Assembly (NCBI GenBank): GCA_014239365.1
Contig: JAAZZB010000006.1
Location: 6,307-70,306, forward strand
Direction: 5' to 3'
DNA length: 64,000 nucleotides
Origin: Verrucomicrobiia bacterium
GTDB taxonomy: Bacteria > Verrucomicrobiota > Verrucomicrobiia > Limisphaerales > UBA1100
The notes under the pieces are model-generated. The model had not been told where the DNA came from and searched no databases. It saw only the letters and a list, made by a program, of their open reading frames with translations. Both the position numbers and the translations under genes were made by a program. Positions 1-10,366 of the stretch are shown here, in pieces. The stretch's first letter is position 1; each line of letters begins with the position of its first letter.

Positions 1-7
1 AAAACTC

Positions 8-3000
8 ATGATGACGGCGGCGTTGTGGTTCGTGTTTTCAGGAAACACGACCGCAGCAGATTGGCCGATGTGGCGCGGGGATGTAACGCGCAGCGGAGCA
101 ACGCGCGAGGCTTTGCCCGCCAAATTGGACTTGCTCTGGACGCGCAAATTGCCTCCGGCCAAGCCGGCTTGGCCAAACGAAGTGCGCTTGCATTTTGATG
201 CCTCGTACGAACCGATCGTTTCCGGAGGGCGTATGATAGTGGGTTCGCCCAATGACGGCAGTGTGACGGCTTACGACACTAACACCGGACGGGAGTTGTG
301 GAAATTTTTCACAGACGGGCCGGTGCGGTTGGCGGCGGTTGCGTGGAAAGAGAAAATTTATTTTGGTTCGGACGATGGCTATTTGTATTGCCTCGATGGG
401 GCGAAGGGTTCGCTGCTTTGGAAAGTGCGCGGGGCACCGAGCGCGCGCCGCGACTATCGGCACTTGGGCAACGGCCGACTGATCTCGGTTTGGCCGGTGC
501 GCGGCGGGCCGGTGCTGGCCGATGGCGTGGTGTATTTTGGCGCGGGCGTGTGGCCGTCGATGGGAGTTTTTGTTCGCGCGGTCGATGCGGCGACGGGCAA
601 GGTGATTTGGACTAACGCCAACAGTCACGCGATTGAGAATGTGCGCATCGATCATAATTATTTGCACGAGTCCGGAATTTCGCCGCAAGGGCATATGTTG
701 ATTTCGGGGGATCTGTTGATCGTACCCAATGGCCGCTCGATGCCTGCGCGGTTGGATCGGAAAACCGGTGAACTTAAATATTTTGTGCAAGGCTACCGCA
801 ATGGCGACAGCCGAGTGATTCTAGGCGGCAAGGTGGCATTGGTCGGCGCCAGCGGCGTGATCAACCTGAAAGACGGCCGCGAGATTGGCAGCCGCTGGGC
901 GACGGCCGGCAAGGATGCCCCTTCGGGGTGGAGCTCGAAAAAGGATCTCTTTGAGGGGCCGATGCATGCTTACAAATTTCTGCCGGGTTGTGATTATCGT
1001 TCGGTCGTTGACGGCTCTGCCTGTTACGGGATGCACAAGGGCGTGCTTTTTGCGTATGATCTCAATCGGGCAATCACCTCGCTTTACAATCTCGATGATC
1101 AAGGGAAAACGCTAAAACCAGTGCGCTGGGATGCGCCGCTCCTTTGGAAACTGGATATTGGAAAGCTGGGAACAACAAATCACAAAACGCTCATCAAAGC
1201 GGGCAAACAACTTTACGGCCATGTCGGCAAGCAACTGTTTTCGATTGGTTTGCCGGTCGCGAAAGTAGTGCCCCCGAAACTAATCTGGTCGAAAAAATTA
1301 AACTCGGAACCGGCAACCATTTTGGCCGCTGACAAAAAATTGTTTGTGGTGGCGACGGACGGAACGATTCAATGTTTCGGCAAGGCAACCGCGGAAGCAA
1401 TAATTCATGAACACCAATTCGGGACCGTTCCAAAGGATGGCGATGCGGCGCAAATCGTGAAACGAGCATTGAAGGGAACGCCACCGCAGCGCGCTTATGC
1501 CGTGGTATTAGGAGTCGCCAACGGGGATCTCGTTCAAGCGTTACTGGATCACACAATCATGAAAGTGATCGTGCTCGACGAAAATCCCAAACGAATCAAT
1601 CAACTGAAACAACGTCTCTCCGCGCACGTTAATTACGACAACTTCCAAGCGATCGTTGGCACGGCGAATACCGTTGAACTCCCGCCTTATCTCGCGAGCC
1701 TGATTGTTTCGGAAACTCCGGATGCCCTGAAGCTCACTGACACAAAATCGGTTGGACAAATTCTCAAGTCTTTGCGGCCGTACGGCGGAACCCTCTGTTT
1801 CCAGCTGATTCGCGACGAACAATATGCCGTTGCGAAAACAGTTGGCAAAACGAAAATGGCCAACCTGCGGATCGAGACAACCCCAGATTTACTTTTCATC
1901 CGTCGTCTGGGCGGTTTGCCTGGCGCGGCTGATTGGACGCACGAAACAGCTGATGCCGCGCGGTCATTTTTCTCCAAGGACGAATTAGTCAAAGCACCGC
2001 TCGGAGTGCTGTGGTACGGCGACGGGCCCGATCATGGTTTTCATAAACGCAAGGACTACGGACACGGTGTTAAGCCGCAGGTTGCCGGCGGTCGGATGTT
2101 TGCCCTGCAAGTTGCTTCTAGCACGCTGCACGCGGTGGATGTGTACACGGGCCAGGTTTTGTGGACGCGCAAAGTTGGCGGCTCGGCTCGGTACGCTTCG
2201 TTTCCCGATGCGGTTTATGTCGCCACCGGACGATCTTGCGAGGTGCTGAATGCCGCGGATGGAAAAACAAAAAACACGTTCAATATGGACATCGGCCAAC
2301 CGGATAACCAACCCGCAAGCGCCTCGGATATTCGAGTAGACGGCGATCTCATTCTGATCGCCATCCGATTCAACAACGAAAACGCAATCAGCAAAGGTCG
2401 CTGGAACAGTCAATTACTCGTCGCGCTGGATCGCAAAACGGGCAAACAACTTTGGGCGCGCAAGGCCGAACATCGATACAACACTGCGTCGATCGCGGTG
2501 GCCGACGGGCGCGTGTTTTGCGTCGACTCCCATTCGCCTGAAGAAATTTCCAAGATGTCCCGCCGCGGCGAACCGACCGATACATTGCCCTCAACCGTCT
2601 TGGCTCTTGAAGCACGCACCGGAAAAGTTCTTTGGACCACCGTGAAAAAAGATCCCGCCGCCGTTCATCACTCGCTACATTTCCTCGGCCTCCGCACCAA
2701 GGACGATTGGCTTACCTACTCGGCCGAGCACAAAATGCTGCTCACGGGCAAATCGGAAAACACCTACGCCTTCAACGCCACCAACGGCCGGCAAATCTGG
2801 CACAAACCCGTCCGTGGAAATCAGCCGCTCATCCTCGGGCCAAACTCGTTTATCAATCAGGCCGGCCATACTTACGAGGTCGCCACCGGCAACATCCTGA
2901 GCAGCGTGCCACTGTTCCGGCGAGGCGGCTGCAACTACGCGGTCGGAAATAAAAATCTGTTATTCCTACGCGCCAACTGTGCCGCTTACGTTGATATCAA

Positions 3001-3205
3001 AAGCCGCCAGCAATACAACCTCCGCAATCTGCGTTCCGGCTGCAGCAACAGTTTGGTCGCCGCCGACGGGTTGTTAAACATCCCGTGCTTTTCCGTCGGC
3101 TGCGTTTGCAACTACCCGATCCAAACCTCCTTCAGCATGTTTCACATGCCCGCCGCCAAACAATGGCACGGCCCCGCCCAGCCGCAGGAAGTCCCAAAGA
3201 ATTAA
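8..3205 (+). CDS. PQQ-like (BamB-type) beta-propeller repeat protein with a central degenerate Rossmann/methyltransferase-like insert. Possibly truncated at the 5' end by the window edge.
   Basis: Long ORF with recurring propeller blade motifs (DWPMWRGD, GRELWKF, GSLLWKV, GKVIWT, GKQLWAR, GKVLWTT, GRQIWHK). Residues ~495-600 (AYAVVLGVANGD...VIVLDEN...ASLIVSE...LRPYGG) look like a class-I MTase fold. Cys-rich C-terminus. The reading frame is still open at position 2. Confidence 0.8.
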   Translation: MMTAALWFVFSGNTTAADWPMWRGDVTRSGATREALPAKLDLLWTRKLPPAKPAWPNEVRLHFDASYEPIVSGGRMIVGSPNDGSVTAYDTNTGRELWKFFTDGPVRLAAVAWKEKIYFGSDDGYLYCLDGAKGSLLWKVRGAPSARRDYRHLGNGRLISVWPVRGGPVLADGVVYFGAGVWPSMGVFVRAVDAATGKVIWTNANSHAIENVRIDHNYLHESGISPQGHMLISGDLLIVPNGRSMPARLDRKTGELKYFVQGYRNGDSRVILGGKVALVGASGVINLKDGREIGSRWATAGKDAPSGWSSKKDLFEGPMHAYKFLPGCDYRSVVDGSACYGMHKGVLFAYDLNRAITSLYNLDDQGKTLKPVRWDAPLLWKLDIGKLGTTNHKTLIKAGKQLYGHVGKQLFSIGLPVAKVVPPKLIWSKKLNSEPATILAADKKLFVVATDGTIQCFGKATAEAIIHEHQFGTVPKDGDAAQIVKRALKGTPPQRAYAVVLGVANGDLVQALLDHTIMKVIVLDENPKRINQLKQRLSAHVNYDNFQAIVGTANTVELPPYLASLIVSETPDALKLTDTKSVGQILKSLRPYGGTLCFQLIRDEQYAVAKTVGKTKMANLRIETTPDLLFIRRLGGLPGAADWTHETADAARSFFSKDELVKAPLGVLWYGDGPDHGFHKRKDYGHGVKPQVAGGRMFALQVASSTLHAVDVYTGQVLWTRKVGGSARYASFPDAVYVATGRSCEVLNAADGKTKNTFNMDIGQPDNQPASASDIRVDGDLILIAIRFNNENAISKGRWNSQLLVALDRKTGKQLWARKAEHRYNTASIAVADGRVFCVDSHSPEEISKMSRRGEPTDTLPSTVLALEARTGKVLWTTVKKDPAAVHHSLHFLGLRTKDDWLTYSAEHKMLLTGKSENTYAFNATNGRQIWHKPVRGNQPLILGPNSFINQAGHTYEVATGNILSSVPLFRRGGCNYAVGNKNLLFLRANCAAYVDIKSRQQYNLRNLRSGCSNSLVAADGLLNIPCFSVGCVCNYPIQTSFSMFHMPAAKQWHGPAQPQEVPKN

Positions 3206-3401
3206 AAAGCGAGAACAAATTTTGGGTGGCGCGGCATCGACATTGGGGGGTTCCTTGGGCCCAATGACCGCCGCTGAAGCGGGGGATGAAATCAAAAACA
3301 GAGCAAACAATGCGAGGGAAACGGTCGTGGCTTTCACGCCTTCAATTTACCACACACTTGCCGGTTGTCAACTGACTGACAACATTTAATGTAAATATAA
3401 T

Positions 3402-3462
3402 CTGATGTTCACAATATACAGGATGAATTTTTATCCTGAATATCGTGGGCATCTGTGTTCAA
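3402..3462. repeat. 61-nt dispersed intergenic repeat, copy 1 (internal hairpin CAGGAT-N8-ATCCTG)
   Basis: Matches 11554..11614 at 54/61 positions by hand alignment. Lies in a convergent intergenic region. Confidence 0.8.
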
Positions 3463-3522
3463 ACAAAACCGCCCCACAGCGCGAGGCTGCGAGGCGGATG
3501 AATTTGAACTGGCGAACAAGTT

Positions 3523-4080
3523 CTATTGTTCGCGGCCGGCCGGGGCGAGCATCATCTGGAGCCACTCAATCATATCCAGAGAGTTATCACTATTTCTGTC
3601 GCCACCGCGGAACTGCGCCGTGCGCCCGGCGTTTGCGCCGCCTTCGAACATTCGGTTCCACTCGGCTTTCGTCACTTTGCCGTCGCCATTTTTATCGTAT
3701 GTGATGAACAAGCGAGCGCGCTTGTCGCCACGAATCCGTGATTGCAGCGAAGGAGCGCGTTCGCCATTTCCCCCACCGAGATGAATGTCACGGCGGACTG
3801 CCTGAAATTCCTTCACCGTAAGCGCATTCCCCCCGCCACTGTGTTTTTCGAAAACTCCAGTCCACTTCTTCACGCCGCCTTCGCCATATAGACTTTTGAA
3901 TTCGGCGAAAGACATTTGGCCGTCGCGATTTTTGTCAAACCCCTTGAAGATGCGCACCTGTTCTTTGTCAAACGACTTGTCGAGCAACGCCAAAAGCTTG
4001 GCGTCATTGTTCTTTGGTTTGGCCGAAGCGATGAACGCGCTCAGCACCAGTGCAAAGGTGAGGATGATCTTTAGTTTCAT
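3523..4080 (-). CDS. Secreted EF-hand calcium-binding protein
   Basis: Signal peptide MKLKIILTFALVLSAFIASA. Three EF-hand loops (DKNRDGQMSFAEF, DKNGDGKVTKAEW, DRNSDNSLDMIEW). Paralogous to the C-terminal domain of the upstream anti-sigma factor. Confidence 0.85.
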   Translation of the reverse strand: MKLKIILTFALVLSAFIASAKPKNNDAKLLALLDKSFDKEQVRIFKGFDKNRDGQMSFAEFKSLYGEGGVKKWTGVFEKHSGGGNALTVKEFQAVRRDIHLGGGNGERAPSLQSRIRGDKRARLFITYDKNGDGKVTKAEWNRMFEGGANAGRTAQFRGGDRNSDNSLDMIEWLQMMLAPAGREQ

Positions 4081-4112
4081 AGTTTTCCTTGGTTGTTGTT
4101 TTTTGGTTTGGT

Positions 4113-4955
4113 TTATTTTTCTTTGCCGCCGGATTTCCGGTTGAGCCAGTTTACAAATTCATCGCGATCCAGCACATCGTCGCCGTTCTGATCGGATTCG
4201 TTGAATTGCCGCTCGCGGGCGGGATGTTGACCGGGACCTTCGAACATTTGTAGGTATTCTGCGCGCGTCACTTTCCCGTCGCCATTCTCGTCGTAGGCAG
4301 CGAACATTTTCCCCGCACGGCTTCGTTCAAATTGCAGTTTGCCGGGCGGACGTTCACCGCTGCCCGCGCCATTGCGGATGGCCGCACGCAGTGCCTGAAA
4401 TTCACTCATCGAAAGCTCTTCGTCGTTGCCTGAATGTTTTTGAAACATTGACTGAAACCGCACCGCGCGCCCGCCGTATAACCCGTCGAATTCCTCAAAA
4501 CTCATCGCCCCATTGCCGTCGCGGTCGTACCGATCAAATATCTTCAATTCCTGACGATCACGATAGCGTTGCTCGTATTTTTCAAATCCAAGCAATCCGA
4601 GTGCATGATCCAGCACCGGCGCATCCGCCGCCGCAAGCATCATCACCGCCACCACCGATGCCGCAATGCCCCACGCCCAACCGGGCAGCCCCGCCCACGC
4701 ACGACGCGGCGCGGCGATCACATTTGCCGGCGCTTTGTTTTCGGCTTCCTCCACCAACGATTCCAGCCAAGCCGCCGTCTGCGCCGAGGAACACGCCAAT
4801 TGCAATTCATCCTCCAATGCTGAAGCGAGGCGCGCCGTTGCCACAAATTCTTCCAACGCGCCCGCGTCAGATCGCAGCGCTTCCTCCAGCTCAGTGGCCT
4901 CCGATGTTTTGCCATCGAAATACTTGCCGAGCTGTCTTTGATAATCGCTGTCCAT
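4113..4955 (-). CDS. Membrane anti-sigma factor with a periplasmic triple EF-hand domain
   Basis: The start ATG overlaps the sigma factor stop codon (TAATG at 4953-4957). Short cytoplasmic N-terminus, one TM segment (GLPGWAWGIAASVVAVMMLAAA), then EF-hand loops DRDGNGAMSFEEF, DENGDGKVTRAEY, DQNGDDVLDRDEF. Confidence 0.75.
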   Translation of the reverse strand: MDSDYQRQLGKYFDGKTSEATELEEALRSDAGALEEFVATARLASALEDELQLACSSAQTAAWLESLVEEAENKAPANVIAAPRRAWAGLPGWAWGIAASVVAVMMLAAADAPVLDHALGLLGFEKYEQRYRDRQELKIFDRYDRDGNGAMSFEEFDGLYGGRAVRFQSMFQKHSGNDEELSMSEFQALRAAIRNGAGSGERPPGKLQFERSRAGKMFAAYDENGDGKVTRAEYLQMFEGPGQHPARERQFNESDQNGDDVLDRDEFVNWLNRKSGGKEK

Positions 4956-5452
4956 TATGCCTCTGCTATGGTTCGTTTTACGCAATCCCGCAACAAGCGC
5001 CGCAGCCGTGAGAGCGTTTGATAAACGGCATCCACCGAACGCTCCGTCTGCTCCGCGATAGCCTCGCAGCGAAGGTCATCCTGATAACGCAACTCCAGCA
5101 ACTCGCGCGAAGGCGCTGGCAATTCGTCCATACAATGCCGCAGTGCCTGAACTTGAAAATCGTGCTCCACCGAATCAAAGGCTTCGAGAATCCGCTCCAT
5201 CGTTTCCGGCTCGAACGCCACTGGGAAACGTCGATCCGCGCGTTGACGATGCAAAATCTTATTCGCCGCAATCCCGCGCGCCCACGCGCCGAAGGATTTC
5301 GTGCGGTCAAAGCGCTCCCATTCCCGCCACAAAATCAGCGCCACCTCCTGAAACACATCCTCCCGCGCCGCCGGCTCCCGCACCAACGAACCGATGAAGG
5401 CCCGCAAATCGCGTTGGTGTTCCAAGAAGTTTTCCAGAAATTCCTCGTGCAT
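4955..5452 (-). CDS. ECF (sigma-70 family, group 4) RNA polymerase sigma factor
   Basis: Region 2 (DVFQEVALILWREWERF) and region 4 (LPAPSRELLELRYQDDLRCEAIAEQTERSVDAVYQTLSRLRRLL) motifs. 165 aa. Confidence 0.9.
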   Translation of the reverse strand: MHEEFLENFLEHQRDLRAFIGSLVREPAAREDVFQEVALILWREWERFDRTKSFGAWARGIAANKILHRQRADRRFPVAFEPETMERILEAFDSVEHDFQVQALRHCMDELPAPSRELLELRYQDDLRCEAIAEQTERSVDAVYQTLSRLRRLLRDCVKRTIAEA

Positions 5453-5591
5453 ATCCTTACCACACCTTCCCCAAAAAGCTGATTTCCTGACAATGTTTTT
5501 TTATAAATTTTCAGCCAAGCCAAGTTTTTCACCACAGAGACACAGAAGGAATAAACAATTTTTTCTCACCCAGCGATCCTCAGGGTTGATT

Positions 5592-6050
5592 TCATTCAGG
5601 CATCGGGCCAAGAGAACCACCCCAAATCATACCGTCATTGGCAAAAATGTTATTAGGATTGAAAGCAATTTCCCACGGGTAGCCATCGGGATCAGCAAAG
5701 TAGCCGTTTTGACCGCCCCACTCAGCCGATTGTGCGGGCTTCAAAATTTTCCCACCAGCCGATTCGGCGAAGGCGAGCACCTCGGTAACTTCCGCCTCGG
5801 TGCGGACATTGTGCGCGAGGGTGATGCCGCCAAAACCGGTGCCGGTTTGTGGATGATCGTCGGCGATATCTTTCGCGAGCAATTTTTTCGGATACAATGC
5901 GAAACGCGTTCCGACAGTGCGGAAGATGGCCCAGTCGGCGGTGGCTTCGGTGATGTCGGTAGGGAAGCCAAGGCCGTCGCGGTAGAAGGCGATGGCCCGC
6001 GCCATATCCGCCACGCCGAGCGTGATGATGCTGATGCGTGGCTCGAACAT
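5592..6050 (-). CDS. VOC (glyoxalase/bleomycin-resistance/dioxygenase) family protein
   Basis: ISIITLGVADMARAIAFYRDGLGF N-terminal VOC motif. ~150 aa. Starts 4 nt after the upstream sulfatase stop codon. Confidence 0.85.
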   Translation of the reverse strand: MFEPRISIITLGVADMARAIAFYRDGLGFPTDITEATADWAIFRTVGTRFALYPKKLLAKDIADDHPQTGTGFGGITLAHNVRTEAEVTEVLAFAESAGGKILKPAQSAEWGGQNGYFADPDGYPWEIAFNPNNIFANDGMIWGGSLGPMPE

Positions 6051-6054
6051 GCCA

Positions 6055-7530
6055 CTACAATTTTGGGAACGACTTTTTTAGGTCGAGCTTGTCGCCCATT
6101 TCTTTTTGGAGTTTGAGCATTCTGGCAAAGAGCTCGCTAATACGTTTTTCCTGTTTGGCGTCGTGGGCGAGGTCGTTCATTTCCAGCGGGTCGGCATCGA
6201 TGTTGTACAAACGCGCTTTGTTGACGGCGGGGTAAAGGATGAGTTTCCAGCCATCGACGGTGACGCTGCGTTGCTTGCCGAGATACGCGCCGTGGATGGC
6301 GTCGTAAGCGTGCTTCTTTGACTTGCCCTTGAGCATCGGCAGGAGGCTGTGGAATTCCACTTTGTCAGCGGGCTTGGCGCCGGCGATTTCGAGCGAAGTG
6401 GGATGGACATCCTGCAAATAAATGGGTGCATCATTTTTCGCGCCCGCTTTGATGCCGGGGCCGGCGGCGATGAAGGGGACGCGCGTGCTGTGCTCGTACA
6501 TATTTTGTTTACCAAACAAACCGTGATGACCGACGGCAAGCCCGTGGTCGGCGCTGAAGAAAATGTAGGTGTTATCGGCTTGGCCGCTTTTGTCGAGTGT
6601 GTCGAGGACGCGCCCCACCTGCGTATCGAGGTGCTCGATGATGGCGTAGTATTCCCGGCGATGCACTTTCACCGAATGCTCCGTGCGCGGCATCGGGCCG
6701 AGGCGTTCATCGCGTAAGCTGTGCGGGTTTCCGATTTGATCTTTGTACGGATACTGCGGCAGGAAATTTTTTGGCAATGCGATGCGCTTGAGCGGGTAGC
6801 GATCGACATATTCCTTGGGCGCCTGTCGCGGGTCGTGCGGGGCATTAAAGGCGATGTACATAAAAAACGGACGCTTGTCCTTCGCCGACATTCCGAGGAA
6901 ATCAACAGCGTCGTCAGCGACGATTTCACTCCAGTGTTTGCCGCCTTCCCAGAAGCCGCCGTATTTTTTATCGAACGGGCTCCACACATCGGGCTTGCCG
7001 GGCAACGGGCGGTTGTATCCTACGCGGCGGCCCAATGCGTTTTGTCTCGGCATCCCGGGCTGGACGTGGCGCGCCACCTCAAACGCTTTCTCGGCGTTGG
7101 CGCGGATGTGCCATTTGCCGGTGAAGAAAGTTTGGTAACCTTGCCGCTTCAAAACCTGCGGCCACAGCCCATCGAACTCTTTTTGTTTTGCCGCCGCATC
7201 GGCCTTGTTGCTGCCCAACAAATTCGAAGCCGCCTGCGCGCGCCAAATGTAGCGCCCCGTGATGAGCATATGCCGACTAGCCACGCACACCGCGCCGCTC
7301 CAGGAACCCATATTGTACGCGCGCGTGAAGGTGGTGCCACGCTTCATCAACCGGTCGAGATTGGGCGTGTCAATATCCGTGAGCCCCATCGCGCCAACTG
7401 CCTCGTAGCACATATCATCGGCGAAGATGAACAGGACATTTGGCTTACCCGCCGCGCGGGAAAGAATCGGTGCCATCAAAAGAATCGCCAGCATCAACCG
7501 GCCCAATGAGTAAATCACAGAACGTTTCAT
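6055..7530 (-). CDS. Sulfatase (formylglycine-dependent, arylsulfatase A family), C-V-A-S-R variant
   Basis: Signal peptide, NVLFIFADDM, active-site CVASRHMLITGR (nt 7273-7287), GKWH. Start placed at the internal ATG at 7530 (MKRSVIYSL...). Confidence 0.9.
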   Translation of the reverse strand: MKRSVIYSLGRLMLAILLMAPILSRAAGKPNVLFIFADDMCYEAVGAMGLTDIDTPNLDRLMKRGTTFTRAYNMGSWSGAVCVASRHMLITGRYIWRAQAASNLLGSNKADAAAKQKEFDGLWPQVLKRQGYQTFFTGKWHIRANAEKAFEVARHVQPGMPRQNALGRRVGYNRPLPGKPDVWSPFDKKYGGFWEGGKHWSEIVADDAVDFLGMSAKDKRPFFMYIAFNAPHDPRQAPKEYVDRYPLKRIALPKNFLPQYPYKDQIGNPHSLRDERLGPMPRTEHSVKVHRREYYAIIEHLDTQVGRVLDTLDKSGQADNTYIFFSADHGLAVGHHGLFGKQNMYEHSTRVPFIAAGPGIKAGAKNDAPIYLQDVHPTSLEIAGAKPADKVEFHSLLPMLKGKSKKHAYDAIHGAYLGKQRSVTVDGWKLILYPAVNKARLYNIDADPLEMNDLAHDAKQEKRISELFARMLKLQKEMGDKLDLKKSFPKL

Positions 7531-7570
7531 AGATGCGCAATGCTCGCGCAATCCACCCGTGCTAGCAAAC

Positions 7571-8989
7571 TTATTTGCGTCCGCGCGTTTTGATTTTCAA
7601 AACCGCCTTCGGATCGTACAACGGATTTTTCCCCGTGGGCACGGGAGCGTTTGTGGCTTTGCGCCATTTTAACATCGCGGCGTGAAGTTCTTTGGTTTTC
7701 GCGGGCATCTTTTTGGCGAGGTCAGTTGTTTCACTGAGATCGTTTTTCAAATTGTACAACTCCAGTTTGCCGTCCTCAAAAAACTCGATGAGTTTCCAAT
7801 CGCCCATCCGGATGGCCGCGGCGGGCGTAGTGCGGAAAGGGCCGTGGCGGGGCGTGTAGCCTTGGAGGTAACACGGGAAATGCCAGTGCAACGCGGCGCG
7901 ATCCAGCGACGCAGAGGCATTGCGCAGCAACGGCGTGAGACTCACGCCATCGAGCAAATAATTTTTTGGGCGCTTGGCTCCGGCGATTTCCAGCAGCGTG
8001 GGATAAAAATCCACGCCGATCACCGGCTCGTGGCACGTACTGCCGGGCTTGATGACGCCCGGCCATTTCACCGCGAGCGGCTCGCGGATGCCGCCTTCGT
8101 ATAGCATTCCCTTGGAGCCACGCAATGGCGCGTTTGAGGTCACACCGGCGTGGCCGCCGTTGTCGGAGAAGAATATCACGATCGTGTTGTCGTCGAGCTT
8201 CAAGCGCTTGAGCGTTGCCTGCACCGCGCCGATGCTGTCATCCATACTTTCAATCATCGCCGCATACGCCGGATTTTTGTGGCCGCCGACGGGTTTCTTT
8301 TTTTTGTATTTCGCCGTGAGATCCGCCTTGCCCTGAATGGGCGTGTGCACGGCGTAATGCGTGAGGTATAAAAAGAATGGCTTGTCCTGATTGGCCTCGA
8401 TGAATTTGCAGGCCTCCGCGCCGAGGCGATCGGTGAGATACTCGCCCTTCTCGCGATTGACGAGGTTCGGATAATTGTACGGACTATGATAACCGCCGCC
8501 GGTGGGACTGCCCCAATGTTTGCCGGCGATGTTTACATCGAAGCCCTGCGTGGTGGGGTCCGCGCCAAGATGCCACTTGCCCATCGTCGCCGTCACGTAA
8601 CCCGCCGCTTTCAATGACTCGGCAATGGTCACGAATTCATCCGCCAGCACGGTTGTATTTTTGATGGGAATCAACTTCCGAAACGCCGCCTTGCCGCGAT
8701 CAGAATTGGCCACCGTAAAAACTCCGTGCCGAGGCCCGTACTGCCCACTCATCAAACACGCACGGCTCGGCGCGCAATTGGGCGCGTTGGAGTACGCGCT
8801 CATAAACTTCATTCCCTCCCGCGCCAGTTGATCCACGTGCGGCGTCTCATAATATTTCGACCCCATAAACGACACATCCGTCCAGCCCAGATCATCGATG
8901 AAATAAAAGACAATGTTCGGCGGCTTGGCAGCAGAAGCCAACGTGGCCAAAGCCAGCCACGCAATGAGTGTGCGGTAAAATGTTTTCAT
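7571..8989 (-). CDS. Sulfatase (formylglycine-dependent)
   Basis: Signal peptide, PNIVFYFIDDLGW, CAPSRACLMSG, GKWHLG, FFSDNGG. Confidence 0.9.
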   Translation of the reverse strand: MKTFYRTLIAWLALATLASAAKPPNIVFYFIDDLGWTDVSFMGSKYYETPHVDQLAREGMKFMSAYSNAPNCAPSRACLMSGQYGPRHGVFTVANSDRGKAAFRKLIPIKNTTVLADEFVTIAESLKAAGYVTATMGKWHLGADPTTQGFDVNIAGKHWGSPTGGGYHSPYNYPNLVNREKGEYLTDRLGAEACKFIEANQDKPFFLYLTHYAVHTPIQGKADLTAKYKKKKPVGGHKNPAYAAMIESMDDSIGAVQATLKRLKLDDNTIVIFFSDNGGHAGVTSNAPLRGSKGMLYEGGIREPLAVKWPGVIKPGSTCHEPVIGVDFYPTLLEIAGAKRPKNYLLDGVSLTPLLRNASASLDRAALHWHFPCYLQGYTPRHGPFRTTPAAAIRMGDWKLIEFFEDGKLELYNLKNDLSETTDLAKKMPAKTKELHAAMLKWRKATNAPVPTGKNPLYDPKAVLKIKTRGRK

Positions 8990-9088
8990 CAATCGGCCCA
9001 AAGGCTAGTGCGACCGTTGCGCAGACAAAAGCCAAAAAAACACCTCCGCGCTTGACGCTTTCCTCGTGCGCCGAAAAGGTGGCGGCGC

Positions 9089-10348
9089 GTGACTGATTCC
9101 CGCAGCAACACCGGTTCCTTTAATGTTTACCTCGACCCCGCCAAGGGGGAGTGGCTCGACAGCTATGAAGGCGTGCCCACGCCGATCGCTGCCGAAGCTC
9201 TCGCAGTGTTGCCCGGCGAAAAGCGACTGACGTTTCGCTGGCAAAAGGCGCTGCACCGCACGCTGCACGCGCTGGGCCAATTGGCGCCGGGGCTGGGCTT
9301 AGCCGTGTGCCTCGCGGTGGCCGGAACTTATTTGTCGGCTTGGATGGGCAGCGCGGTTTTCACAATGGATCGCAGCCCCGTCAGCCCGATTCTCTTAACC
9401 GTGCTGCTCGGGTTGCTCATTCGCAACGTGGCCGGATTGCCGGTTGCGTTTGAGGAAGGCTTGCGGGTTTGTGTGCGCGTGATTCTGCGCGTCGGCGTGG
9501 CGTTGCTTGGCTTGCGGCTCAGCCTCGCGGCGGCGGGGCAGATCGGACTGCACGCGCTGCCGCTGGTTTTTGGCTGCATCGCTGTGGGGATTGCTTCGGT
9601 GCTTTGGCTGGGCAAACGGCTCGGCTTGCCAACGCGTTTGGCAAGCCTCATCGCGGTGGGCACGGGCATCTGCGGCGTGTCGGCCATCGTTGCCACCGCG
9701 CCGGCCATCAAAGCCAAGGACGAAGAGGTCAGCTACGCAGTTTCCGTGATCGCGCTGTTTGGAATGGTGGCGATGTGCGTTTACCCTTTCCTGGCGCATT
9801 TAATTTTTGAGGGCAATCCCACGCTCGCCGGCTACTTCATTGGCACCGCCATTCACGACACGTCGCAAGTGGCCGGCGCGGGGCTGATGTACGGCCAACT
9901 GTACGATGACCCGCGCGCGTTGGAAGTCGCCACCACCACCAAGCTCCTGCGAAACCTTTGCATGGGCGCGGCGATCCCGCTGATGGCGTGGCTGCATTAT
10001 CGCGAAAAATCAGTGCGGCCCACGGGCACCAGCGGTAAACTTAAGTGGAGCCAAACGCTGCCATTTTTTGTGATCGCCTTCATCGCGCTGGCCGGTGCGC
10101 GCACGATGGGCGACCTCAATGGACTGCACGACAATGAAGTTTGGAAATCGTTTCTCACTTGCGCCAACCAAACCAGCGTCTATTGCCTCACCCTCGCGAT
10201 GGGCGCGGTGGGCCTCGGCGCGAGTCTTTCGCAAATGCGCCAGCTCGGTTGGCGCCCGCTTTGCCTTGGCTTTGCCGCTGCGCTGTTGGTCGGCGGCGTA
10301 AGTATTCTTTTGCTAAACCTTCTGGGAAAGGTCATCGCATTTTCTTAA
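9089..10348 (+). CDS. YeiH/UPF0324 family putative sulfate exporter (polytopic membrane protein)
   Basis: Multi-TM protein with the GTGICGVSAIVATAPAI motif typical of the family. GTG start is uncertain. Confidence 0.75.
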   Translation: MTDSRSNTGSFNVYLDPAKGEWLDSYEGVPTPIAAEALAVLPGEKRLTFRWQKALHRTLHALGQLAPGLGLAVCLAVAGTYLSAWMGSAVFTMDRSPVSPILLTVLLGLLIRNVAGLPVAFEEGLRVCVRVILRVGVALLGLRLSLAAAGQIGLHALPLVFGCIAVGIASVLWLGKRLGLPTRLASLIAVGTGICGVSAIVATAPAIKAKDEEVSYAVSVIALFGMVAMCVYPFLAHLIFEGNPTLAGYFIGTAIHDTSQVAGAGLMYGQLYDDPRALEVATTTKLLRNLCMGAAIPLMAWLHYREKSVRPTGTSGKLKWSQTLPFFVIAFIALAGARTMGDLNGLHDNEVWKSFLTCANQTSVYCLTLAMGAVGLGASLSQMRQLGWRPLCLGFAAALLVGGVSILLLNLLGKVIAFS

Positions 10349-10366
10349 GCCTCAGCCTCATTTGAA

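Follow-up and report, generated by a model that had tools for sequence, protein, structure and literature searches.

A verrucomicrobial ECF anti-sigma factor with a predicted calmodulin-like periplasmic domain, encoded next to a free EF-hand paralog: a candidate calcium-responsive switch

We analysed a stretch of 64,000 nucleotides (the window; all coordinates below are positions in it) from contig JAAZZB010000006.1 of an uncultured Verrucomicrobiia bacterium. On its minus strand, this stretch carries a locus with genes for an extracytoplasmic function (ECF) sigma factor, for a putative anti-sigma factor and for a free, secreted EF-hand protein. The periplasmic part of the anti-sigma factor is predicted to be a calmodulin-like domain related to the free protein, and we consider it about an even chance that the three genes form an ECF switch gated by Ca2+ occupancy, with feedback on the free EF-hand protein. 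The predicted parts of such a switch are present: a sigma factor, a FecR-type N-terminal region, a single transmembrane (TM) segment, an EF-hand fold, three intact ligand sets, an operon layout and a promoter motif. What is new, as far as it can be read from the sequence, is the covalent fusion of two suspected partners, an EF-hand protein and an anti-sigma factor.

The sigma factor matches PF04542 (Sigma70_r2) and PF08281 (Sigma70_r4_2) and contains regions 2 and 4 only. With 152.7 bits for TIGR02989 (cut-off 124.55) and 86.4 bits for TIGR02937 (cut-off 42.9), it is an ECF (group 4) sigma-70 factor of the TIGR02989 subfamily, three members of which are encoded in the host genome among about 18 ECF-like matches. 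Its closest relatives, 53-58% identical, are found in other metagenome bins of the Planctomycetes-Verrucomicrobia-Chlamydiae (PVC) group, while the paralogs in its own genome are just 38% and 32% identical to it; a query of the genome collection with the sigma factor gave one partial match, in an Isosphaera bin. The closest TIGR02989 members are paired with FecR-domain anti-sigma factors or with larger partners lacking a Pfam match and have no defined signal.

The positions given for the three genes in an earlier note on this DNA are right, and all three lie on the minus strand. The translational coupling was read directly from the sequence: within a TAATG (4957-4953), the stop codon of the sigma gene (TAA, 4957-4955) shares a base with the start codon of the anti-sigma gene (ATG, 4955-4953). 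Anti-sigma factors carry many kinds of periplasmic domain, and the N-terminal part of this one is of a familiar type. No Pfam match was found for anti-sigma residues 1-120; residues 5-77 align to a profile of partner N-termini with an hhalign probability of 93.8% (E 1.8e-7). This profile was made from the N-termini of five partner anti-sigma factors, three from the closest sigma relatives and two from the host genome, four of which carry a FecR domain, and the corresponding hidden Markov model matches the 280-aa anti-sigma factor alone among the 314 proteins compared. The N-terminus is predicted to be a FecR-type sigma-binding region. PF04773 (FecR) is not matched even at E <= 1, and residues 120-275 hold EF-hands instead, so that the protein would resemble FecR-type anti-sigma factors at its N-terminus only. 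The partners of the closest TIGR02989 relatives are likewise single-pass anti-sigma factors encoded after the sigma gene and carry an N-terminal motif (LIxRYLDG...DP...F...RL) that matches residues 5-77; the sigma genes of these relatives have the same promoter-like motif in front of them. By contrast, the partners are 363-765 aa long, most with a periplasmic PF04773 domain with or without further domains, whereas the protein described here has 280 aa and its calmodulin-like domain begins about 10 residues past the membrane. As had been noticed earlier, there is one TM segment: the sole hydrophobic segment (residues about 92-112, mean Kyte-Doolittle 2.07) contains the only windows above 1.6, and the two arginines (RR) that precede it on its N-terminal side predict an N-in/C-out topology.

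Three EF-hand stretches above the Pfam cut-offs (EF-hand_1/6/7) were found in anti-sigma residues 120-275. When the periplasmic domain alone was modelled by AlphaFold2 with a 35-sequence family alignment, eight helices, four short loop strands and a disordered inter-lobe linker were obtained, with a mean predicted local distance difference test (pLDDT) score of 79.6, and the best Foldseek matches of the model were CHP1, calmodulin and troponin C. In this model the domain is calmodulin-like, with four EF-hands in two lobes; the sensor had earlier been described as a triple EF-hand, which holds for the three canonical loops and has to be changed for the domain as a whole, since it has a fourth, degenerate EF-hand in second position. 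It shares with calmodulin, troponin C and calcineurin-B-like proteins the two lobes of paired EF-hands and the flexible linker, but it is only 15-24% identical to them, is predicted to be extracytoplasmic and tethered to the membrane, and has one degenerate loop and a GxGER linker.

Loops 1, 3 and 4 retain oxygen ligands at positions 1, 3, 5 and 12 (D, D, N and E in loop 1, which has G at position 6; in loop 4, D replaces this G), and loop 2 is degenerate, with H at position 1 and G at position 3. The 12-residue loops and the paired helix-loop-helix layout are those of the EF-hand class, and Ca2+ binding is predicted. Together, the three canonical loops retain all of their twelve main Ca2+-ligand positions despite the very long branch of the domain in the family tree (see below), and the identity of the fused domain to the free family, 37-45% overall, is about 55-64% in the loops against 30-40% elsewhere. 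The EF-hand similarity to the XopAW type III effector family (NF041410) is generic only, with 35 and 29 bits against a cut-off of 120.

Two motifs that do not contribute ligands, KHxG and GxGER, show no variation across the 35 sequences of the family, of which the fused copy is one. The first is located in the degenerate second loop (4401-4436; K54, H55 and G57) and the second in the disordered inter-lobe linker (about 4350-4375). In many family members a Cys follows the invariant His; it is not conserved in the fused copy or in its neighbour.

The domain could in principle sense another metal, for example a lanthanide or another divalent cation, which we regard as very improbable. This idea draws on a weak match to lanmodulin (NF053806, 13.7 bits, E 0.049) and on the His that is invariant in the degenerate loop, next to which many family members have a Cys. 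The lanmodulin score is far below the cut-off of 135, and lanmodulin was rejected as an assignment; Pro at position 2 of the EF-loop is typical of lanmodulin, but no loop here has it, the canonical loops having R, E and Q at this position, and the Cys is not conserved in either of the two EF-hand proteins encoded at this locus.

The free protein of 185 aa has an N-terminal hydrophobic leader, MKLKIILTFALVLSAFIASA/K (ending IASA/K), EF-hand Pfam matches and the same four-loop layout. Anti-sigma residues 133-271 are 42% identical to residues 38-174 of this neighbour (E 5e-34). The collinearity of a signal-peptide protein with the periplasmic domain had been recognised in the earlier note, and it was found to extend further, over the whole precursor: it spans the whole mature neighbour, and the alignment to an ortholog (P0005) is gap-free back to anti-sigma residue 101, so that the TM segment and the signal peptide of the free protein occupy exactly the same place in it.

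The free family comprises about 40 database clusters, 57-76% identical, from Verrucomicrobia subdivision 3 bins and metagenomes, at least one member coming from a TARA Oceans scaffold; on these sequences it is conserved and confined to this verrucomicrobial lineage. Its genes were part of a cluster of the sulfatase/DUF1501/PSCyt-PSD type in every context read, and in these contexts a sigma factor gene never adjoined them. The neighbour is the resident ortholog, syntenic with the gene of a same-genus relative and firmly grouped with its orthologs in the tree (100/100); it is also the sole paralog of the fused domain within the genome. The branch of the fused domain is about 40 times longer than the median (3-4 changes per site, the median being 0.07), and its position in the tree cannot be placed: neither a position as sister to the neighbour (p-AU, of the approximately unbiased test, 0.12) nor as sister to the neighbour's clade (p-AU 0.49) was rejected, and distant EF-hand outgroups gave no help. 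The fused domain is closer to a distant clade of the family (50%) than to its own neighbour (42%), which makes a recent tandem duplication unlikely. The earlier note had taken the free protein for a duplicate of the anti-sigma domain. This direction has to be reversed, as the free protein, with its family of about 40 clusters, represents the ancestral state and the anti-sigma domain a derived, fast-evolving and strongly diverged copy.

Among distant members of the free family, the next gene, at a distance of 3-25 nt, codes for a protein of 385-462 aa with no or faint Pec_lyase matches, and the two genes are a conserved, uncharacterised partnership. This second gene (in L004 at 6626-7783, and in L028-L033) is followed by PSCyt/PSD and DUF1501 pairs, and in L004 also by an FGE-sulfatase gene. 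One family member (P0040, contig L006) lies on a contig with a coverage of 0.05, on which the genes are split into many short open reading frames (ORFs), probably an issue of assembly quality.

At the locus itself, the minus strand reads, from 5' to 3', sulfatase, sulfatase, VOC/glyoxalase, sigma factor, anti-sigma factor, free EF-hand protein and a strong terminator-like hairpin (Table 1). The VOC and sigma genes are separated by 139 nt, and the anti-sigma stop and the free EF-hand gene by 32 nt; no terminator-like site was found on the coding strand between the VOC, sigma, anti-sigma and free EF-hand genes. The reading frames of the sigma factor, the anti-sigma factor and the free protein are all intact, with ribosome-binding sites. 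The same gene order is repeated in two independent metagenome scaffolds from other samples, 100% and 99.87% identical to the window, and the arrangement is therefore not an assembly chimera.

Table 1. Features of the locus in window coordinates
Feature	Position	Strand	Basis
Sulfatase	7571-9001	-	ORF; ortholog with PF00884 on contig L001 of a same-genus relative
Sulfatase	6055-7551	-	ORF; L001 ortholog with PF00884
VOC/glyoxalase protein	5592-6050	-	ORF; L001 ortholog with PF00903
Promoter-like motif TGTCAGGAAAT-N-GGGGAAGG, putative autoregulated ECF promoter	5465-5492	-	Pattern common to close sigma relatives
ECF sigma factor, 165 aa, TIGR02989 (Rhodopirellula/Verrucomicrobium family)	4955-5452	-	Pfam and NCBIfam
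Anti-sigma factor, 280 aa, translationally coupled to the sigma gene	4113-4955	-	TAATG overlap, translation
Predicted cytoplasmic sigma-binding N-terminal region, residues 1-77, FecR-type	4725-4955	-	hhalign
Single TM segment, residues about 92-112, predicted N-in/C-out	4620-4682	-	Kyte-Doolittle
Predicted periplasmic calmodulin-like domain, residues 120-275, four EF-hands in two lobes	4131-4598	-	AlphaFold2, Foldseek
EF-hand loop 1, DRDGNGAMSFEE, canonical, residues 144-155	4491-4526	-	Ligand positions
EF-hand loop 2, HSGNDEELSMSE, degenerate, residues 174-185	4401-4436	-	Ligand positions
EF-hand loop 3, DENGDGKVTRAE, canonical, residues 222-233	4257-4292	-	Ligand positions
EF-hand loop 4, DQNGDDVLDRDE, canonical ligands, residues 255-266	4158-4193	-	Ligand positions
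Secreted free four-EF-hand protein, 185 aa	3523-4080	-	Leader and EF-hand Pfam matches
Intrinsic terminator-like hairpin, operon end	3469-3497	-	12-bp stem with 9 G-C pairs, then TTTTGTTT
1,423-bp block missing from a same-genus relative	4149-5571	-	blastn

Upstream of the sigma gene, from 5492 to 5465, we found the sequence TGTCAGGAAATCAGCTTTTTGGGGAAGG. The pattern GTCAG-N16-17-(G/T)GAA(A/G)(G/A) also precedes the genes of the three closest sigma relatives and, after it had been fixed, was recovered before that of a fourth (L041); an Isosphaera relative retains the CGTGTCAGGA part of the motif. A loose form of the pattern gives 38 matches in the 6.6 Mb of the two strands, which amounts to about 1e-3 for each upstream region of 150 nt, and its occurrence in five of five close relatives examined is consequently far beyond chance. 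These 38 matches are scattered, most of them inside long open frames, and no convincing second sigma target was found among them. The strict form gives two matches in the 3.3-Mb genome, one before the operon described here and the other inside a 515-codon open frame without a downstream ORF. As the sole strict match upstream of a gene is that of the operon, the predicted output of the sigma factor is the operon itself, including the free EF-hand gene.

In the switch that we propose, the EF-hand input module would have been taken from the lineage-specific secreted family, in place of the FecR or other large C-terminal part. In the resting state the anti-sigma factor would keep the sigma factor at the membrane. 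A change of Ca2+ occupancy would alter the conformation or stability of the periplasmic domain, the likeliest trigger, by analogy with the EGTA-induced cabp and sigV genes of Caulobacter, being a loss of Ca2+, and the altered domain would admit or block the regulated proteolysis of the anti-sigma factor; the genome has a gene for an RseP-type M50 (site-2) protease. Once released, the sigma factor would transcribe its own operon, that is, the sigma, anti-sigma and free EF-hand genes. Sensor and main product are paralogs and are therefore predicted to bind the same ligand, and the circuit would adjust the amount of free protein to that ligand, giving feedback on a periplasmic Ca2+-binding protein which elsewhere belongs to sulfatase/polysaccharide-utilisation gene clusters.

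Several points weigh against such a switch. If the habitat contains about 10 mM Ca2+, as a marine one does, canonical EF-hands would be saturated, which would make Ca2+ concentration ill suited as a signal. The pattern search of the genome gave no further target for the sigma factor, and the putative promoter motif, which ends 12 nt before the ATG, could partly be a ribosome-binding site. The sigma gene of one of the three assemblies may count as a further point: in the 99.87% identical scaffold (L036, position 1353, equivalent to window position 5125), a G->T change turns sigma codon 110 from GAA into TAA (E110*); this change either is a genuine null allele or reflects damage-type sequencing error. 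Finally, because the fusion is a singleton (see below), conservation gives no evidence of selection.

The question of saturation leads to the main rival explanation, in which the EF-hands are always loaded, as would be likely in a marine habitat, and Ca2+ is structural, and the anti-sigma factor is gated by the binding of a partner, as in calmodulin. Candidate partners include the free paralog, as a heterodimer or competitor, the peptides or proteins of the sulfatase/polysaccharide-utilisation machinery, and an anionic sulfated glycan that strips Ca2+ locally; the switch would then respond to how much free protein or substrate is present, and not to ambient Ca2+. The best fold matches of the domain are target-binding four-EF-hand proteins, the free family is constantly found within sulfatase/DUF1501/PSCyt-PSD clusters, the invariant KHxG and GxGER of fused and free copies suggest a conserved interaction surface, and the TARA scaffold member, which indicates a marine source for part of the family, argues for saturated sites; the paralogy between the sensor and the sole predicted product also fits this explanation. 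On the other hand, the strong divergence of the fused domain from the free proteins is as compatible with a changed specificity as with a shared one, and cabp and sigV, the only experimental analog, respond to Ca2+ depletion (PMC13171946). We regard permanent loading as somewhat unlikely, though to be taken seriously.

The experimental analog is the CaBP-SigV system of Caulobacter vibrioides, in which a periplasmic EF-hand protein and an ECF sigma factor are under mutual control and react to limiting Ca2+ and to acid (dos Santos & Simao 2026, PMC13171946); both cabp and sigV are induced by EGTA, and the link across the membrane was left unidentified (PMC13171946). Only once, for this system, has a secreted EF-hand protein with a neighbouring ECF sigma gene been described experimentally (PMC13171946). 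The locus described here resembles it in having an exported EF-hand protein encoded beside an ECF sigma factor, mutual regulation being only predicted here from the operon and the motif. In Caulobacter, however, the gene of the free EF-hand protein is located upstream of that of the sigma factor, and an anti-sigma factor with EF-hands is not known, whereas here an EF-hand domain is covalently part of the anti-sigma factor, the free paralog is encoded downstream in the operon and the sigma factor belongs to TIGR02989, a PVC family. A second system is EfhP of Pseudomonas aeruginosa, an EF-hand protein predicted to sense Ca2+ in the periplasm, whose conformation changes when Ca2+ is bound (2024, PMC11559002); it is needed for the Ca2+ regulation of iron-starvation ECF systems and has been hypothesised to contact FecR-type anti-sigma factors (PMC11559002). 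EfhP is a separate protein that is not encoded with a sigma/anti-sigma pair, and its contact is hypothetical, while here the fusion provides the contact. In the main text of the ECF classification paper (Casas-Pastor et al. 2021), EF-hand and calcium are not mentioned.

The CaBP and EfhP papers thus tie periplasmic EF-hand proteins to ECF systems without a membrane link (PMC13171946, PMC11559002), for which this locus offers a candidate in one polypeptide of 280 residues with a recognisable ligand-binding fold, and the idea of a route from Ca2+ to ECF factors can thereby be tested directly. If the switch works, it would be a compact, orthogonal Ca2+-responsive one. The locus is also a clean case of the origin of a new ECF input, with a sensor domain from the family of a co-transcribed product, within a block of 1.4 kb that one species has and a same-genus relative lacks.

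A stronger proposal can be made, which we consider unlikely. The tethered EF-hand domain and the free paralog would be a Ca2+-dependent pair, as a heterodimer or as competitors, that decides the cleavage of the anti-sigma factor, and the main or only target of the sigma factor would be the free paralog; periplasmic EF-hand proteins would act directly on FecR-type anti-sigma factors, and here the anti-sigma N-terminus would have been joined to a whole EF-hand precursor, the position of the signal peptide becoming the membrane anchor. If true, the locus would be a minimal, portable and self-calibrating Ca2+ homeostat, and a 'Rosetta stone' for the route hypothesised in Caulobacter and Pseudomonas.

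How widespread the fusion is bears on all these proposals. A word-based search of 5.8 billion clusters with the anti-sigma factor recovered the protein itself only and no full-length relative. With phmmer against 1.84 billion representatives, none of the best 150 of 611 matches covers both halves of the protein: all 150 are EF-hand alignments to residues about 120-280, none with an anti-sigma N-terminus, and independent fusions with unrelated EF-hands could rank lower. No fusion was found in about 440 genomes, comprising 40 genomes of relatives and 400 spread over the phylum. The search for other EF-hand anti-sigma factors that the earlier note had proposed was thereby carried out, with no further case within these limits, and the sigma/EF-hand anti-sigma fusion is a singleton in the databases searched, known from three near-identical assemblies of one population.

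The comparison with a same-genus relative (genome G006, metagenome contigs L001-L003), which matches about 19 kb of the window collinearly, with a nucleotide identity of 74-90%, suggests how this state may have come about. The relative has the string sulfatase-sulfatase-VOC-EF, with sulfatase and VOC orthologs (in L001) at 86-88% nucleotide identity, and lacks the sigma/anti-sigma pair. The location at the end of a sulfatase/VOC string, pointed out in the earlier note, stands as regards the common direction of the genes, but the link is partly secondary, as the relative's string runs without the pair. By blastn, window positions 6991 to 5572 and 4148 to 3530 are contiguous in L012/L001, and 5571-4149 are missing there. 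Besides the sigma gene, the missing block contains the spacer in which the promoter motif is located and the anti-sigma gene to about codon 268; some 6 nt of microhomology are found at its junction, and the final 11 codons of the anti-sigma gene (WLNRKSGGKEK) lie in DNA homologous to the non-coding VOC-EF spacer of the relative. The absence of the pair from all other genomes searched favours an insertion at the VOC-EF spacer, while the helix after EF4, which crosses the junction with the hydrophobic pattern of the family, favours an older gene and a deletion in the relative. Horizontal transfer was tested by composition with a negative result, the block having a GC content of 55.7% against 56.9% for the window.

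These observations also bear on the possibility that the fusion is an evolutionary accident, in which recombination at a variable site joined a sigma/anti-sigma N-terminal fragment to a copy of the EF-hand gene, leaving a neutral or decaying product. Its singleton status, a spot with three different contents in three genus members (see below), final codons that are non-coding spacer DNA in the relative, the stop codon in the sigma gene of one assembly and the lack of any target promoter beyond its own are all consistent with this. Against it stand the three intact frames with their translational coupling and ribosome-binding sites, the conservation of all twelve ligand positions on a very long branch, the clade-typical promoter motif that the block carries with it and a composition equal to that of the host genome, which is not that of a fresh arrival; as for the stop codon, three of the four differences between the variant scaffold and the window are G->T/C->A, a common error signature. 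An accident therefore seems to us distinctly improbable.

In a third genus member, the gene right after the VOC gene codes for another secreted protein (MMKIILAVLALS...; L038, G005:C293, 1893-2268), and the EF-hand gene continues on a separate contig (L014, G005:C232, 1-170), before a GDSL lipase gene. The VOC-EF spacer is thus a variable site, as three genus members hold three different contents. Two further blocks of the window are absent from L001, one with a YeiH-type transporter gene (9101-10359) and one with a PQQ-propeller gene, a terminator and a 61-nt repeat (1-3529), and the relative has an extra sulfatase instead. This dispersed repeat, 3' of the EF-hand gene (3402-3462), matches positions 1150-1210 of L001 at 82%, and the match is equivalent to the second copy of the repeat in the window, located between sulfatase and FAD genes.

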